Positions 7,362 through 54,338 of a stretch of DNA of 64,000 bases are shown here, in pieces. Both the position numbers and the translations under genes were made by a program. The stretch lies in IMG/VR virus record IMGVR_UViG_3300045812_000062; one strand, written 5' to 3'. Source of the stretch: a virus. The stretch's first letter is position 1; every line of letters starts with the position of its first letter. The notes under the pieces were generated by a model. It saw only the letters and a program-made list of their open reading frames with translations. It made no database searches and was not told where the DNA came from.

Positions 7362-7928
7362 TATCTATGCCGCCTGTTCGGCGGTAAACTATCACGATGA
7401 TACGTAAACCGACTACCCAGTATTCAGAGCCGCCTATGCGGCGGTAAACGTGACTATTGCAGGGTCTCAAACGCGCTGCAAATTCAGAGCCGCCTGTGCG
7501 GCGGTAAACGTATCCTGTTTGTCGATGAATTTGACAGTGCTATTCAGAGCCGCCAGAAGGCGGTAAACGAAACGAGAGATACCTATCTCGTTGGTGTGAT
7601 ATTCAGAGCCGCCTGTGCGGCGGTAAACTTACCTGGTCCTGCCTGGTCGTCGTTTTTTTTATTCAGAGCCGCCTGTGCGGCGGTAAACTCAATACCCTCC
7701 ATTTCTCTGCATGCTGTAGAATTCAGAGCCGCCTGTGCGGCGGTAAACGATATCTGATCAATGTGCGGGACTGCGCACCTATTCAGAGCCGCCTGTGCGG
7801 CGGTAAACGGAATTTGGGATTTGAATGACAACGACGAATAATTCAGAGCCGCCTGTGCGGCGGTAAACATGCCGACCGGGCATTTCAGTCTCGATATGCT
7901 ATTCAGAGCCGCCTGTGCGGCGGTAAAC
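7362..7928 (-). CRISPR. type I-F-like CRISPR array, 10 repeats / 9 spacers, no cas genes in window
   Basis: 28-bp repeat GTTTACCGCCGCACAGGCGGCTCTGAAT (minus strand) at 7422, 7482, 7601, 7661, 7721, 7781, 7841, 7901; 27-bp variant at 7542; degenerate terminal repeat at 7362; all spacers 32 bp; 5-bp hairpin CCGCC/GGCGG as in I-F repeats. Confidence 0.97.
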
Positions 7929-30066: not shown

Positions 30067-30254
30067 CGAAAGAGTCGGGACACGAGATCGAACCAGCATT
30101 AGTCATTTCATTGTGGAGAAGCGTTAGTCGTCGGTTACTGCTTCCTATTCGCTATTAGTGGTCTCTTTAAATTCTGCCTCTAAACATCGTTCAAAAAAGC
30201 TTGCTCCGCCACCAGTAATGTCTTACAGTGTCTTACGCCATAGGAGGCGATAAA

Positions 30255-30515
30255 ATGTCAAACAGCAATCTCTCGGAGTCAGTTACCGTTAGAGTCCCTA
30301 ACAAAATTAACGGCGACCTTGAAAAAATCGCTGAAGCAACAGATCGGTCTAAGAGCTATATCATTGTCCGTGCGCTGAAAACTTACCTCATGAATGAGGG
30401 AGCGGATATTTTAAACGCCATTAAAGGCCGAGAACAGATCGCAGAAGGAGACAGTGATGATATCGACGATGTGATCGCTGACATGGAGCGTATTATCGGT
30501 AAGAAGGTCGCTTGA
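30255..30515 (+). CDS. CopG/RHH-type antitoxin
   Basis: SVTVRVP...LEKIAEATDRSKSYIIVRAL; GGAGG RBS; TGATG coupling to toxin. Confidence 0.85.
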   Translation: MSNSNLSESVTVRVPNKINGDLEKIAEATDRSKSYIIVRALKTYLMNEGADILNAIKGREQIAEGDSDDIDDVIADMERIIGKKVA

Positions 30516-30859
30516 TGCGTATTAGATTATCGCGACAAGCAAGCAACTTCGTTCGCAAGGAAACGAAATATCTTAATGACCGAAGCCCATCCGCTGCAGA
30601 AAAATTCTTGAATTCGATAAAAGAGGCTAAAAAGACGCTTCTGCAATTTCCAAAAATCGGAAATGGCGCACATGGTTTGCATATCAAAGATGCATTAACT
30701 TTTGTGGTTGGCGATTATCTTCTCGACTACATTCCAGATGTCGAATTTGTCGACATCATCAACATCCGGCATGGACGCATGTTACAGAATACTCCAGAGG
30801 TTAGCTCTGACAATGAATTTGATGATGAAGACGCTATTAGCCCTCCCTCACCAAAATAG
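30515..30859 (+). CDS. RelE/ParE-family toxin with extra acidic C-terminal tail
   Basis: IRLSRQA...YL...SPSAAEKF...L..FPKIG...YLLDY...IINIRHGRM followed by ~25 extra aa. Confidence 0.85.
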   Translation: MRIRLSRQASNFVRKETKYLNDRSPSAAEKFLNSIKEAKKTLLQFPKIGNGAHGLHIKDALTFVVGDYLLDYIPDVEFVDIINIRHGRMLQNTPEVSSDNEFDDEDAISPPSPK

Positions 30860-30875
30860 TCATATAGGTCACATG

Positions 30876-30907
30876 AAAAAAGCGGGCCAACAATGCTAAC
30901 CCGCTTT
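30876..30907 (-). terminator. intrinsic terminator (poly-U on the minus strand)
   Basis: AAAGCGGG/CCCGCTTT inverted repeat with A6 on the left. Confidence 0.6.
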
Positions 30908-30944
30908 CCAAATCAAATATGGCACTCTTGCATTCGAGGTTGAC

Positions 30945-32871
30945 TGGTCCATAAATTTTGATAAGAATTAATACCTATTATGGGATTAGGTGTGGTATTT
31001 GATCAGAACATTTGAAACACGTCTGGATTTAAGAGCGGATGATTTGCTTCCGCTCTTTAACGTGTTGGATCAATATAGTTCTTTGATGAACTATGCTCAA
31101 CGCATTATTCATGCCAAGCTAAAAGCAGGCCGCGTCTGGACTGGTGATTTACATAAAACACTCTACCGCGAAATTGGTATCGGCTCTGTTCATCTGAACA
31201 TGGCCTATCGCCAGTTATTGGCAAAGCTCTCTTCTATCAAGGAATTAGCGAAAGATCGCGTCAAAGACCTGAAGGACAGAATTAAGTCCAAAGAAAGTGA
31301 TATTGCCAAAAAAGAAAAGGCAATTAATCGCAATAAAATTAATGCGAAAAAGGTTTCAGCCGAACTAGTCCTCTGGGAAGAACGGGTAAAGCGTTTTAAA
31401 GATGCGGTCGATGATGGGCATGTCCATATTGAAGATAAATTAAAACGCTCAATCAAAGAATATTACGCTTATCTCGATCAGCTTCGTGAATTAAAGGCAG
31501 TGCGTAAAACACTTAAAGATGCGGTACATCAGAACAAGCGGCGTTTAAGCATACTGCGTCTTAAATTGGCAGAAGCTGAGCTTGCCGTTACGAATCCATC
31601 GATCTGCTTTGGAACAAAGAAACTCTTTAAAAAGCAATACTTTCTCAATGAAAATGGTTTCAAAAACCATGGAGAATGGCTTGAAGCGTGGAGAGAAAAG
31701 CGAAACAGCCAGTTCAAGTTTGATGGTAATGCCGCAGTGGGAAGCGGCAACGACTTCGCAAAACTGAGCATCAGGGATGATGGTCTGTTTGATCTGGAAT
31801 TACGTTTGCCGGATAAGCTGAAGCACCTGGCCCAAGAACATAAGTTTAATGGAAAAATTCATATTGTCAGGTTTAAAGCATTATCGTTCAATCACGGCTC
31901 TGACGTCATTCGGGAAGCTCTGAGTAACAAACAGCCTGCGACTGTTTCGTTCATCAAGGATGAAACATCGTGGAAGGTGAGCGTCACGGTAGATCAGAAG
32001 CTCGAATGGATCGAACCTGATTATAACTATGGGGCATTAGGCGTTGATTTTAATGCCAATCATATTGCCCTGTCTCTCATTGACCGCTTCGGTAATCCAG
32101 TCCGGTCATGGACATTGCCGCTTAACACCTATGGACTGAGCAGTGATCAGGTTCAGGATTTAGTCAGAAAATGCGCCAAACAGATTGTCGACATTGCTTT
32201 GGAATATGATGTGCCTATTATCAGCGAAAAGCTCGACTTTTCGCGTAAGAAGCGAGACATAAAAGCAGAAGATGGAGCAAATTATGCCCGCATGCTGTCA
32301 TCACTTGTCTATAGTGGTTTTGACGCAGCACTCGCTTCAGCCTGTACGCGTTTCCGCGTTGCACATAAGCGGGTTAACCCCGCTTACACCTCATTGATCG
32401 GTCGTGTGAAGTTTGCTCGTCGTTATGGCTTGAGCGTCCACACGGCTGCCGCCGTTTCCATTGCCCGCAGGGCTATGGAACTTTCCGAGGGATTACCTCG
32501 TCAGGTTGATGGGACAATCATTGTCCCGTTCAACAATTCTGAACATGGCACCTTTGCTCTACCTGCAAGGAAGGAAAGCCTGGCATCCGCCAGGCCTGTA
32601 AAGCATGTATGGTCGGAATGGAACGAGGTGAACAAGGAACTGAAAAAGGCTCATGAAGAGCAAAGTCTGTCTGGGCGTAAACGTTCCAGACCCTTCACCC
32701 GTCGTCACTGGCGGGAATGTGGTGGTGCATCTTATCTGCGCCATGGTCTTTCTGGATTAATCGGCCGTGCCGAGACCGTCCAGCTTAGTCGCAACGGCCA
32801 AGGGCTGGCCAAACGCCAGGAAGTCATTCCTGAAATGAAAATTCCATAATGAGGTCAAAACTATGTTTCAA
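30945..32871 (+). mobile_element. non-autonomous IS200/IS605-family (TnpB-only) element
   Basis: Left flank ends TTGAC (30940-30944), right end TTCAA (32867-32871), similar to ISDra2 TTGAT/TTCAA; no tnpA in window; removal rejoins a hairpin. Confidence 0.65.
30990..32849 (+). CDS. tnpB: large TnpB-related RNA-guided nuclease homolog
   Basis: RuvC-I ALGVDFNANH, RuvC-II IISEKLDF, VNPAYTS, RuvC-III-like SVHTAAAVSIARR; long coiled-coil insertion; no CxxC zinc finger. Confidence 0.85.
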   Translation: MWYLIRTFETRLDLRADDLLPLFNVLDQYSSLMNYAQRIIHAKLKAGRVWTGDLHKTLYREIGIGSVHLNMAYRQLLAKLSSIKELAKDRVKDLKDRIKSKESDIAKKEKAINRNKINAKKVSAELVLWEERVKRFKDAVDDGHVHIEDKLKRSIKEYYAYLDQLRELKAVRKTLKDAVHQNKRRLSILRLKLAEAELAVTNPSICFGTKKLFKKQYFLNENGFKNHGEWLEAWREKRNSQFKFDGNAAVGSGNDFAKLSIRDDGLFDLELRLPDKLKHLAQEHKFNGKIHIVRFKALSFNHGSDVIREALSNKQPATVSFIKDETSWKVSVTVDQKLEWIEPDYNYGALGVDFNANHIALSLIDRFGNPVRSWTLPLNTYGLSSDQVQDLVRKCAKQIVDIALEYDVPIISEKLDFSRKKRDIKAEDGANYARMLSSLVYSGFDAALASACTRFRVAHKRVNPAYTSLIGRVKFARRYGLSVHTAAAVSIARRAMELSEGLPRQVDGTIIVPFNNSEHGTFALPARKESLASARPVKHVWSEWNEVNKELKKAHEEQSLSGRKRSRPFTRRHWRECGGASYLRHGLSGLIGRAETVQLSRNGQGLAKRQEVIPEMKIP

Positions 32872-32890
32872 CCTCCAATGCGGAAGAGCC

Positions 32891-33982
32891 TCAATCCTCA
32901 ATGCCGTATGTATCTCCATCATCTGCATCAGGACCACTATTATCAAGCAACTGATCTGCAATAAGCCCTGCATCAGCCCGCAGCTTTTCCGCGATTTCAT
33001 CGCAAATCTCAGGGTTCTCTTTCAGGAACTGTTTGGCATTCTCACGTCCCTGACCAAGACGCACTGAATTGTACGAGAACCAGGCTCCAGACTTTTCAAC
33101 GACGTTGGCCTTCCCACCAAGATCAACGATTTCTCCAGTTCTCGAAACGCCTTCACCATACATAATGTCGAATTCAACCTGCTTGAAGGGAGGAGCCATC
33201 TTATTCTTGACTACCTTCACACGGGTCTGATTACCAATGACTTCATCACGTTCCTTGATGGAACCGATACGGCGAATATCGAGACGGACAGAAGCGTAGA
33301 ACTTGAGAGCATTCCCGCCAGTCGTGGTTTCCGGAGAACCAAACATTACACCGATTTTCATGCGGATCTGATTGATGAAGATCACGAGCGTATTCGACCG
33401 TGAAATTGTCGCCGTCAATTTGCGCAAGGCCTGAGACATCAAACGGGCTTGTAACCCTGGCAACGATGCCCCCATTTCACCTTCGATTTCTGCACGAGGT
33501 GTAAGGGCTGCCACAGAATCCACGATGAGGACGTCAACTGCTCCTGAGCGAACAAGGGTTTCCGTAATCTCAAGAGCCTGCTCTCCAGTATCCGGCTGCG
33601 AGATCAGCAAGTTATCAAGATCGACACCGAGCTTGCGTGCGTAAACAGGATCAAGCGCATGTTCGGCATCGACAAATGCACAGATGCCACCTGACTTTTG
33701 GGCTTCAGCGATAGTATGGAGGGCGAGGGTAGTCTTACCGGAACTTTCAGGCCCATAGATTTCGACAATACGCCCTCTTGGAAGCCCACCAATACCCAGC
33801 GCGATGTCTAGTGACAGGGAGCCAGTCGAGATAGTCTTGACTTCCACAACCTGATCATTGGCACCGAGTTTCATGATTGAACCCTTGCCGAATGCACGTT
33901 CGATCTGAGACAGCGCTGAATCCAGCGCCTTCTCTTTATCTGTAGTATTGCCTTCTACAAGCTTGAGGGATGCCTTTGCCAT
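32891..33982 (-). CDS. recA: recombinase RecA
   Basis: [50 protein letters not shown]; ATG at 33982. Confidence 0.99.
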
Positions 33983-34015
33983 GGTCGCCGCCTTTCTGTT
34001 CGATTGACGGCGCTT

Positions 34016-34030
34016 GTACACGGTTTGTTC
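34016..34030 (-). promoter_or_regulatory. alphaproteobacterial LexA (SOS) box of recA
   Basis: GAAC-AAACCGT-GTAC (GAAC-N7-GTAC) about 35-50 nt upstream of the recA ATG. Confidence 0.75.
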
Positions 34031-51602: not shown

Positions 51603-51778
51603 AATGTCTCCGAGAAAAAATGATAAACCAAATTTCTTAAAAGTGCTCGCAAAGCACCAGTACTAACTGGGATAATAGATTTGGCTAGAGTTCAAAAAAA
51701 ATGGCTATCCGACATTAAGGAAAAACTTAGTTCAACCTCAAATTCTGGATAGCCAAAATGCCAATTATCGACTTCTTA

Positions 51779-52739: not shown

Positions 52740-52815
52740 TGGCGACCCCTGGAGGACTCGAACCTCCGACACCCGGCTTAGAAGGCCGGTGCTCTATCCA
52801 CTGAGCTAAGGGGCC
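52740..52815 (-). tRNA. tRNA-Arg(UCU)
   Basis: 76-nt cloverleaf, anticodon arm CCGGC-CTTCTAA-GCCGG, GGTTCGAGTCC, encoded CCA. Confidence 0.95.
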
Positions 52816-52900
52816 TGGTGCGGACTGGGGGAATCGAACCCCCACGATTAAAATCGGCAAATTTTAAGTCTGCTGCGTCTACCAATTTCGCCAAGTCCGC
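52816..52900 (-). tRNA. tRNA-Leu(UAA)
   Basis: 85-nt class II cloverleaf, GCAGA-CTTAAAA-TTTGC, long variable arm, encoded CCA. Confidence 0.95.
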
Positions 52901-53363: not shown

Positions 53364-53618
53364 GAAAATCCTTTTTAATATTGATTTGTAATAAAATGGT
53401 CTCCCATATTACCACTGTCGTCAACATTATTTAATAAGGTTTATGATCGCTTATTAATATCTCGGTGGTCTTCATATGATAAAGCCATAAGGCATCGTTT
53501 AATAAGCACAGAAGTCACACATTACGAACGTCAATATTAGCAGTACGGATTTAACCGTATCGTAAAACGGGTGTACTACTCGCATGACATTGAGGAGGGG
53601 GAGGTTTTAAAGAAAAAA

Positions 53619-54050
53619 TGGTGGCGTTCTGTTGCCAGGTGCCACCAAACCCCGCCTTAAGGTGCTAACCCTAAGGACTTAAAGCGGATCTCCCGCACTG
53701 CGGTTAGGCAGCGAGAGCACGACCCTGAGCGAAGTTGTCGTTTGCAACTACATTTTTGACCCGATGCGGTGGTATCATGCCGAGTACAACGAGATGACTT
53801 TCAGCTCCTGTCGAACCTAAATCACCCCCATCATAAACACTGCGTTTCACCATCACTGCCATGTCCGCCTGGGTGGCGTCACAACATAGGTTTTATCCGC
53901 TAAGACTTAATTCCCCTCAACCCAATTCTACTCTTGGGAGTTAAGTCGCAGTGCTTATGGTGGAGGTGGCGGCGTCGCAGCCGCGTCCAGAAAACCTATT
54001 ACTCATTCGGTTTAGCACCATATTCGTTTAAGAGAATCTCTCAATCGACA
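53619..54050 (-). ncRNA. ssrA: two-piece (circularly permuted) tmRNA, tag (A)ANDNFAQGRALAA
   Basis: Acceptor piece ends CACCTCCACCA (3' end 53958); coding piece starts GGGGGTGATTTAGGTTCGAC (53829); G3:U70 alanine stem; tag frame 53745-53704; GGTGCTAAACC/GGGTTAGCACC inter-piece pairing; outer ends approximate. Confidence 0.93.
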
Positions 54051-54338
54051 TTTCAATAGATAGTCAATTATTTAATTCTTGTCAATCGTGTACATGAAAA
54101 AATGTGAGAGTATCTGCATTATTTATGCACATTTAAACCATCGATAAACAATATTTTATTGAAAGTTTCGTCAGATATTAATTTTAGTATCGCCTATTCG
54201 ATGGACAATGCAGCGTTAAATGACTGCAGAATATTAGAAGAGAAACCATTTTTAAAAAACGATAGTGAAATCGTTGGTGGTTCGCAGATGGCTGTGTCAC
54301 GTTGTCATTGTGGACTGAAAAACTGCTTTGGGAGAAAA

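Follow-up and report, generated by a model that had tools for sequence, protein, structure and literature searches.

The IMG/VR virus record IMGVR_UViG_3300045812_000062 is represented here by a stretch of 64,000 nucleotides (the window), in which a TnpB-family gene is located directly behind recA. We consider it probable that positions 30921-32890 constitute a 1,970-bp non-autonomous transposon. It has ISL3-like terminal inverted repeats (TIRs) of 23 bp and a decayed 8-bp target site duplication (TSD), and carries as cargo a TnpB-family gene resembling the RIIIr-4 clade together with an omega-RNA-like scaffold. A preliminary description, made from the sequence alone, had placed a tnpB-only element of the IS200/IS605 family at 30945-32871, in the loop of a host hairpin. 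Its proposal of a mobile element with a TnpB-related gene only was borne out, as this gene is the sole open reading frame inside the element and no transposase is encoded. The boundaries and the family membership had to be revised.

Terminal repeats, duplications and the insertion site

The sequences GCATTCGAGG (30930-30939) and CCTCCAATGC (32872-32881) are complementary at 9 of 10 positions, as originally noted. The repeat extends beyond them to arms of 23 nt each at 30921-30943 and 32868-32890 (repeat finder, I3), with 18/23 positions complementary (78%). The left arm reads GGCACTCTTGCATTCGAGGTTGA and the right arm TCAACCTCCAATGCGGAAGAGCC on the plus strand; the left one is homologous to GGCTATCCGnCATCTGAGGTTGA, which ends elements at unrelated loci.

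We compared the DNA of homologues from two Mesorhizobium sp. SP-1A loci, several metagenome contigs and Rhizobium genomes. In the aligned elements, the similarity spans the whole supposed hairpin and breaks exactly at its outer edges. The TIRs of the window's clade are GGCTATCCGnCATCTGAGGTTGA ... TCAACCTCAGATGnCGGATAGCC, while those of the Rhizobium clade, at 45-50% protein identity, are GGGTATTCGTCACGAATGGTTGAA. At least 13 related insertions are flanked by perfect 8-bp duplications directly outside the TIRs, with a sequence that differs at each site. Around elements with the long gene found in the window, these are AAACAATG, GAAAAAGC, CCTCTTTA, ACAGAAAC, CCGAAATC, TGAAAACT and GTGATATC; six further perfect duplications surround elements with a shorter tnpB gene, and one more a 147-bp miniature element.

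Because the repeat is conserved at unrelated sites with perfect duplications just outside, it represents the TIR pair of the element and not a hairpin GGCACTCTTGCATTCGAGG-TTGAC-CCTCCAATGCGGAAGAGCC that existed in the host before insertion. Its retention in homologous elements elsewhere also makes it more than a chance repeat. The TIR/TSD signature thus defines the element as 30921-32890, a result obtained from the comparison of copies rather than from an empty allele. Other boundaries, seen in empty alleles, were what the preliminary description had itself set as grounds for its refutation. TTGAC, previously taken for the target-adjacent motif (TAM), forms the inner end of the left TIR; the sequence proposed as guide, CCTCCAATGCGGAAGAG, belongs to the right TIR, being conserved between copies and not specific to the site.

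In the window, the left copy of the duplication (TCAAATAT, 30913-30920) occupies the position of the perfect TSDs of the relatives, and matches the right copy (TCAATCCT, 32891-32898) at 4/8 positions. The right copy includes the recA stop and the last two codons, and is held by the coding constraint on recA. Since its TIRs have diverged and its duplication has decayed, the window copy is probably immobile: a likely fossil as a transposon that is intact as a gene. The TIR was present in the SP-1A genome (G001) alone among 401 Rhizobiales genomes. A plasmid collection gave no DNA match to the element and only short, chance-level matches to the TIR.

A short motif precedes the duplication. With elements oriented by their gene and independent insertions compared, R-A is found at positions -2/-1 before the TSD on the 5' side of the gene in 7/7 long-gene insertions of the window's clade. 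T-A is found before the TSD in 5/5 Mesorhizobium-type tnpB insertions, four of which have TTTA. Each pattern has a chance probability of ~2-3e-6, a rough estimate before correction for the positions inspected. No mirror motif was seen beyond the right TSD in the insertions compared. As the asymmetry follows the orientation of the gene, we read the motif as TAM-like. The window copy has CCAAA (30908-30912, plus strand) directly 5' of its left TSD, in line with the R-A pattern. The idea of insertion directly 3' of a fixed pentanucleotide is not upheld, since the 8-bp TSD lies between the element and the conserved R-A/TTTA motif. We infer that R-A/CCAAA may serve as the TAM, in which case the would-be target consists of one TSD copy and the right flank.

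The recA gene (32891-34021, minus strand; Pfam RecA, 486 bits) is convergent with the element gene, and its stop codon abuts position 32890. On the other side of the element, at 30875-30908, the minus-strand sequence GCGGG-N13-CCCGC and an adjoining T-run can be read as a candidate intrinsic terminator. It is likely bidirectional and presumably belonged to recA originally. By this reading, the element landed between the recA stop codon and its likely terminator, which is now 1.97 kb away. This displacement means that transcripts of recA must either terminate within the element or continue in antisense across its gene and its RNA region. The window RecA is closest to that of Mesorhizobium sp. 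SP-1A (88%), so that the window derives from a Phyllobacteriaceae relative of lower GC content. In a relative with 88% RecA identity (L170), an ordinary terminator follows recA after ~25 nt and no such palindrome is present; downstream genes differ in relatives at this level of identity. The unoccupied site would read ...CCGCTTTCCAAA-TCAATCCT-CAATGCC..., free of any TIR-like palindrome. In the search for it, neither a degenerate pattern of the recA C-terminus in metagenome contigs nor an exact RecA look-up gave any match. The flanks of the Rhizobium copy L010 were not conserved in 40 relatives, and yielded no empty site either.

Genes for an RHH (ribbon-helix-helix, CopG-type) antitoxin and a ParE toxin are located directly upstream, at 30228-30859. 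RHH/MazE-linked TnpBs are mentioned in RIIIr-4 by Altae-Tran et al. 2023 (PMC10691335). We considered a link between the element and this ParDE module and rejected it because the module lies outside the TIRs; the adjacency looks incidental here. Rfam matches elsewhere in the window are an alphaproteobacterial two-piece tmRNA (53617-54089), two tRNAs (52743-52900) and a CRISPR-DR4 repeat (7362-7389).

The window also contains a 52-bp miniature remnant of the same element type (51703-51754), in which the start of the left TIR appears to be fused to the terminal hairpin of the right end. It is composed of GGCTATCCGACAT..., an inner hairpin and TCAACCTCAAATTCTGGATAGCC, and its right TIR has no mismatches to the degenerate consensus. 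The unit is flanked by a short AAAAT(G) repeat only. Such a layout is consistent with a deletion running from the left TIR to the TIR-like subterminal arm. Similar TIR-only derivatives, resembling miniature inverted-repeat transposable elements (MITEs), were observed elsewhere: one of 147 bp with the perfect 8-bp duplication CGCCATAG (L106/L116), and one of 406 bp (G005:C13:19881-20286).

The TnpB-family protein and its structured 3' region

The gene (30990-32849, plus strand) encodes 619 aa from GTG 30990 or 616 aa from TTG 30999. The TTG is probably the real start, as the resulting N-terminus (M-I-R-T-F-E-T) aligns with the starts of the homologues and AGGTG is located ~9 nt upstream. The features originally ascribed to the protein, a His at RuvC-III, a missing zinc finger and a coiled-coil insertion, were confirmed by an alignment of 30 homologues and an AlphaFold 2 model. 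D353 (GVDxN), E413 and D416 (SExLDF) and H484 are invariant across the alignment, and His484 occupies the position of the TnpB RuvC-III Asp. CxxC pairs and zinc-finger cysteines are absent, with YTSLIGRVKFARRYGLSVH in place of the zinc-finger segment, and the last ~70 residues are not conserved.

The NCBIfam model TIGR01766 (TnpB-related domain) matches residues 385-468 with 34 bits, against a cut-off of 32. The protein remains below the cut-off of the guided_TnpB model (25.7 vs 100 bits) and has no match in Pfam, with both the OrfB_IS605 and the TNB domain absent. Comparison with one canonical TnpB by hhalign and BLASTP gave no match, and phmmer and profile searches of the PDB for solved TnpB/Cas12 proteins returned only coiled-coil noise. 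Among viral contigs, only distant homologues were found. The AlphaFold 2 model, with a mean pLDDT (predicted local distance difference test) of 75, consists of a WED-like β-domain, a very long helical hairpin (~66-201), a RuvC domain and a disordered tail. Its best structural matches (Foldseek) are Cas12f, Cas12k, Cas12m, Cas12e and RuvC, with E down to 4e-8. The long protein is an atypical member of the TnpB superfamily.

A major TnpB clade, RIIIr-4, was described in which the RuvC-III Asp is changed to His and the C4 zinc finger is missing; the conservation of its members was taken as a sign of retained activity, and they were presumed active (Altae-Tran et al. 2023, PNAS, PMC10691335). The long protein shares the His, the missing zinc finger and the conserved rearranged site, and agrees with the description given for this clade. 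In contrast to our elements, the main text of that paper does not feature carriers with ISL3-like TIRs and TSDs, or TIRs shared with canonical tnpB (PMC10691335).

A promoter-like site precedes the gene at 30940-30968 (plus strand; consensus scan), with TTGACT as the -35 box, a 17-nt spacer and AAGAAT as the -10 box. The -35 box had been noted before, with TTGAC assigned to the flank. The site itself holds up, as the same spacing with TAGAAT, ATGAAT or AAGAAT is kept in three homologous elements (L002, L006 and L007), but TTGAC lies inside the left TIR.

The 3' end of the element contains a conserved region of ~270 nt (32618-32890, plus strand) that overlaps both the end of the gene and the right TIR. 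Among seven elements of the window's clade, the nucleotide identity over 32646-32822 is 0.89-0.93, equal to that of the catalytic core, compared to 0.55-0.80 in the gene body. This segment nonetheless encodes the unconserved, disordered tail of the protein. The RNAalifold consensus of the seven elements is a multi-hairpin fold with compensatory pairs. It includes all the nested hairpins that had been noticed at the tnpB 3' end: CTGGA/TCCAG around CGGC/GCCG, GGCCA/TGGCC and CAGGAA/TTCCTG. The last 251 nt of the window copy fold with -87.5 kcal/mol (z = -2.99).

The last helix forms between a subterminal segment and the outer half of the right TIR; within it lies a hairpin to which the inner half of this TIR contributes. 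One element (L003) has a changed right TIR (GCTGGA), which is matched by a compensating subterminal partner (CCAGCA). The sister clade from Rhizobium has the same architecture in different letters: 97.3% of the cells are paired, and 14 pairs show compensatory changes. Its covariation score is 0.221, compared to 0.149 for shuffled alignments (0/500 reach it) and 0.05-0.08 with the partners slid. Many conserved G-U pairs in this clade fit the sense strand only. The conservation stops exactly at the end of the TIR, and no Rfam family matches the region.

The region thus looks like an omega-RNA scaffold that ends at the transposon boundary, judging from its predicted fold, and it has the feature expected in sequence of an omega-RNA, a conserved structure overlapping the gene 3' end and ending with the transposon. 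Of the omega-RNA proposed earlier, the conserved structure overlapping the gene stands; the flank guide as then drawn does not.

Several features recall TnpB and omega-RNA of the IS200/IS605 family (ISDra2, IS608; the OMEGA systems). The protein has a WED-REC-RuvC fold of the TnpB/Cas12 type, a structured RNA region covers the gene's 3' terminus and extends as far as the boundary of the transposon, and a short conserved motif is located 5' of the would-be target. Like tnpB-only (IS1341-type) elements, the element is without its own transposase. Major differences can also be observed: the RuvC-III His, the missing zinc finger and a ~135-aa helical-hairpin insertion distinguish the protein from IS200/IS605 TnpB. 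IS200/IS605 elements have neither TIRs nor TSDs, end in asymmetric subterminal hairpins and are moved by a Y1 HUH TnpA. The window element, in contrast, has 23-bp TIRs and an 8-bp TSD, no Y1 TnpA, and a motif that is placed beside the TSD and not at the element boundary.

Shared ends and relatives

The genome of Mesorhizobium sp. SP-1A contains exactly ten TIR halves, which form five pairs. All of them are occupied, and no empty palindromes are present. Two pairs hold the long gene and three hold a canonical tnpB, with identical TIRs and perfect duplications throughout. The tnpB elements (L089, L090/L093 and L091/L094, at G001:C2 ~1.01, 1.04 and 1.17 Mb) measure ~1,355-1,360 bp and have the same 23-bp TIRs, and their perfect 8-bp duplications are preceded by TTTA or CTA. 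They encode a TnpB of 419 aa (guided_TnpB, 328 bits) in which the OrfB_IS605 and TNB zinc-finger domains are present. The same picture of TIR pairs was found in Rhizobium genomes. A TIR scan of metagenomes detected these ends around the long gene and around a number of different tnpB genes, whose products are 29-93% identical to the SP-1A TnpB, with the 3' end of the gene always abutting the TIR.

The ISL3 family is described in ISfinder as having TIRs of 15-39 bp that begin with GG and an 8-bp TSD. The elements analyzed here share these features, with TIRs of 23-25 bp starting with GG and 8-bp TSDs. A GG start and an 8-bp TSD are also found in the IS6 family, so that they are not unique to ISL3. 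An ISL3 element of a Rhizobiales genome, positive for PF01610 (L135), has the TIR GGTTCTTCGGCAGAATTTGTGGGTGAAA. It agrees at 20 of 25-26 positions with the right TIR of the window (20/26), and likewise with the 52-bp remnant and with the TIR of the Rhizobium clade, a level that none of 300 shuffles reach. The likeness to ISL3 elements therefore comprises GG-starting TIRs of 23-25 bp, the 8-bp TSD, the direct TIR match and the occurrence of miniature TIR-only derivatives. The differences are the missing ISL3 transposase and the cargo, which is a gene of the TnpB family whose RNA scaffold includes the right TIR.

TnpB branches associated with DDE transposases (DDE-2, -3, -5 and -6), for example IS630-linked ones with symmetrical ends, were reported in the main text of PMC10691335. 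In these TnpBs, as well as in eukaryotic Fanzor1 in TIR transposons, a TnpB-family gene lies between symmetrical inverted ends of DDE type, as it does here. Unlike in those systems, no DDE transposase was found in the element or in most of the hosts checked, and the ends are ISL3-like, with an 8-bp TSD, and not IS630/Tc1-like with TA.

Homologues with ~35% identity, sharing the YTSxIG and IARRAM motifs, are found in Chlamydiae, in IS607-type elements of 2.3-2.35 kb without TIR or TSD. These are multi-copy and 99.4-99.96% identical (L026-L032 in one metagenome-assembled genome, L052-L056, L038-L039 and L049/L059/L069/L085); the copies of the seven-copy element are 99.8-99.96% identical. In L026, a MerR helix-turn-helix plus serine-recombinase TnpA is encoded alongside a homologue of the long protein, 547 aa in length. 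These elements also have a left-terminal palindrome and subterminal inverted repeats. Here the long-protein homologue is clearly a TnpB-type accessory. The protein is homologous to that of the window, but unlike the window element the Chlamydiae elements (L026-L032) carry their own MerR-plus-serine-recombinase TnpA and have neither TIR nor TSD. It is mainly this accessory role that leads us to see the elements of alphaproteobacteria as passengers that have borrowed their ends.

Proposed mechanism and alternative explanations

In the proposed mechanism, transcription of the gene would start from the promoter whose -35 box the left TIR provides. The final ~270 nt of this RNA, of which the right TIR is part, may fold into the multi-hairpin scaffold and act as an omega-RNA. 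Because the scaffold ends at the transposon end, any guide would derive from the adjoining flank, starting at 32891 (TCAATCCTCAATGCC...), and would consist of the TSD and of recA 3'-end sequence in antisense. The complex of protein and RNA could then recognize the unoccupied site, made up of the R-A/CCAAA motif, one TSD copy and the right flank. Cutting or binding of this site may favor retention or homing of the element, which would itself be moved in trans by an ISL3-type DDE transposase recognizing the TIRs. Such a transposase is deduced from the ends, with none located in the genomes searched.

Several observations weigh against this reading. No ISL3 (PF01610) transposase was found in four (G001, G002, G003 and G005) of the five genomes with TIR elements that were searched, the remaining one (G004) having only a weak partial match, and no IS6 transposase was found in G001, G003 and G005. 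A symmetric DDE transpososome offers no obvious explanation for an asymmetric motif beside the TSD. The replacement of the RuvC-III Asp by His, together with the loss of the zinc-finger/TNB region, could mean that the nuclease activity is altered or absent. The search for an empty allele at exactly this site was without success; the 99%-identical recA copies (L001 and L169) all carry the insertion. The transcript, its ends and any guide are likewise deduced from the letters of the DNA.

We regard it as unlikely, yet worth serious attention, that the window copy is immobilized and its protein a nuclease-inactive RNA-guided binder (similar to TldR, Cas12k or Cas12m) or a decaying passenger, with its main effect on transcription at the recA 3' end. 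Consistent with this, the window TIRs differ at 5/23 positions, the duplication has decayed to 4/8, and the protein has neither the catalytic Asp, which is replaced, nor the TNB zinc finger. The non-cutting Cas12k and Cas12m are among its best structural matches, and the element parts recA from its terminator under convergent transcription. However, the reading frame and RNA region are intact and close to consensus, and the D-E-H residues do not vary within a large family, which is present in multiple copies and apparently still transposing. Such conservation was read as retained activity by Altae-Tran et al. 2023 (PMC10691335).

The absence of a located transposase keeps alive a further, rather improbable alternative. 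The long D-E-H protein could itself be a transposase with a TnpB-derived RuvC fold, possibly RNA-assisted, that recognizes the TIRs, inserts with an 8-bp stagger and moves its own as well as the tnpB-only elements. In SP-1A, identical TIRs are present on two long-gene and three tnpB elements in the absence of ISL3, IS6 or Y1 transposases. No variation is seen within the family at D353, E413, D416 and H484, the TIR sequences change in step with the protein clade, and the 596-kb metagenome contig with these TIRs on tnpB elements is the longest recorded for the homologue P0050. If this alternative were true, the one-sided motif at the TSD would reflect an RNA- or protein-guided choice of landing site. 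On the other hand, the homologues in Chlamydiae accompany a serine-recombinase TnpA in IS607-type elements without TIR or TSD, which points to an accessory ancestral role. The TIRs are similar to the ends of a genuine ISL3 element, the fold is that of guide-RNA-binding Cas12/TnpB effectors, and a conserved RNA scaffold is attached to the gene. To our knowledge, no RuvC-type TnpB relative performs strand transfer.

We give hardly any credence to the original model, in which peel-and-paste would have placed an IS200/IS605-type, tnpB-only element 3' of TTGAC, within the loop of a host terminator or of a repetitive extragenic palindromic (REP) or MITE palindrome, with CCTCCAATGC... as the guide. 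ISDra2 has TTGAT on the left and TTCAA on the right, which TTGAC and TTCAA recall here; the joined flanks give a 19-bp stem, and small TIR-only units of 52 bp (in the window), 147 bp and 406 bp exist. Against this, the arms travel with the gene to unrelated loci, each with its own perfect 8-bp TSD, and their sequences diverge along with the protein clades, the Rhizobium clade having GGGTATTCGTCACGAATGGTTGAA. Targeting of palindromes would predict more empty copies than filled ones, whereas the five arm pairs of SP-1A are all filled. IS200/IS605 membership is further contradicted by the TIRs and TSDs, and by the absence of a Y1 TnpA (PF01797) from the element and from the SP-1A genome. The recA of the relative has an ordinary terminator and no such palindrome, and the likely true recA terminator of the window (30875-30908) is located outside the element. 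Both the host terminator hairpin and insertion into a REP/MITE loop were therefore rejected.

Reading the element as an ISL3-like, non-autonomous transposon corrects a habit of annotation, in which every tnpB-only element is called IS200/IS605 and its TAM and guide are derived from the edges. It would also provide a bacterial parallel to eukaryotic Fanzor, in which a gene of the TnpB family, along with its RNA scaffold, is integrated into the ends of an ISL3-like transposon of the DDE type. In this arrangement the right TIR would be part of the RNA fold, and the TAM-like motif would sit flush with the TSD. Two very different classes of TnpB have identical TIRs in one genome without a recognizable cognate transposase. 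These shared ends make the mover of such elements, as well as the activity of the Asp-to-His, zinc-finger-less clade, directly testable.

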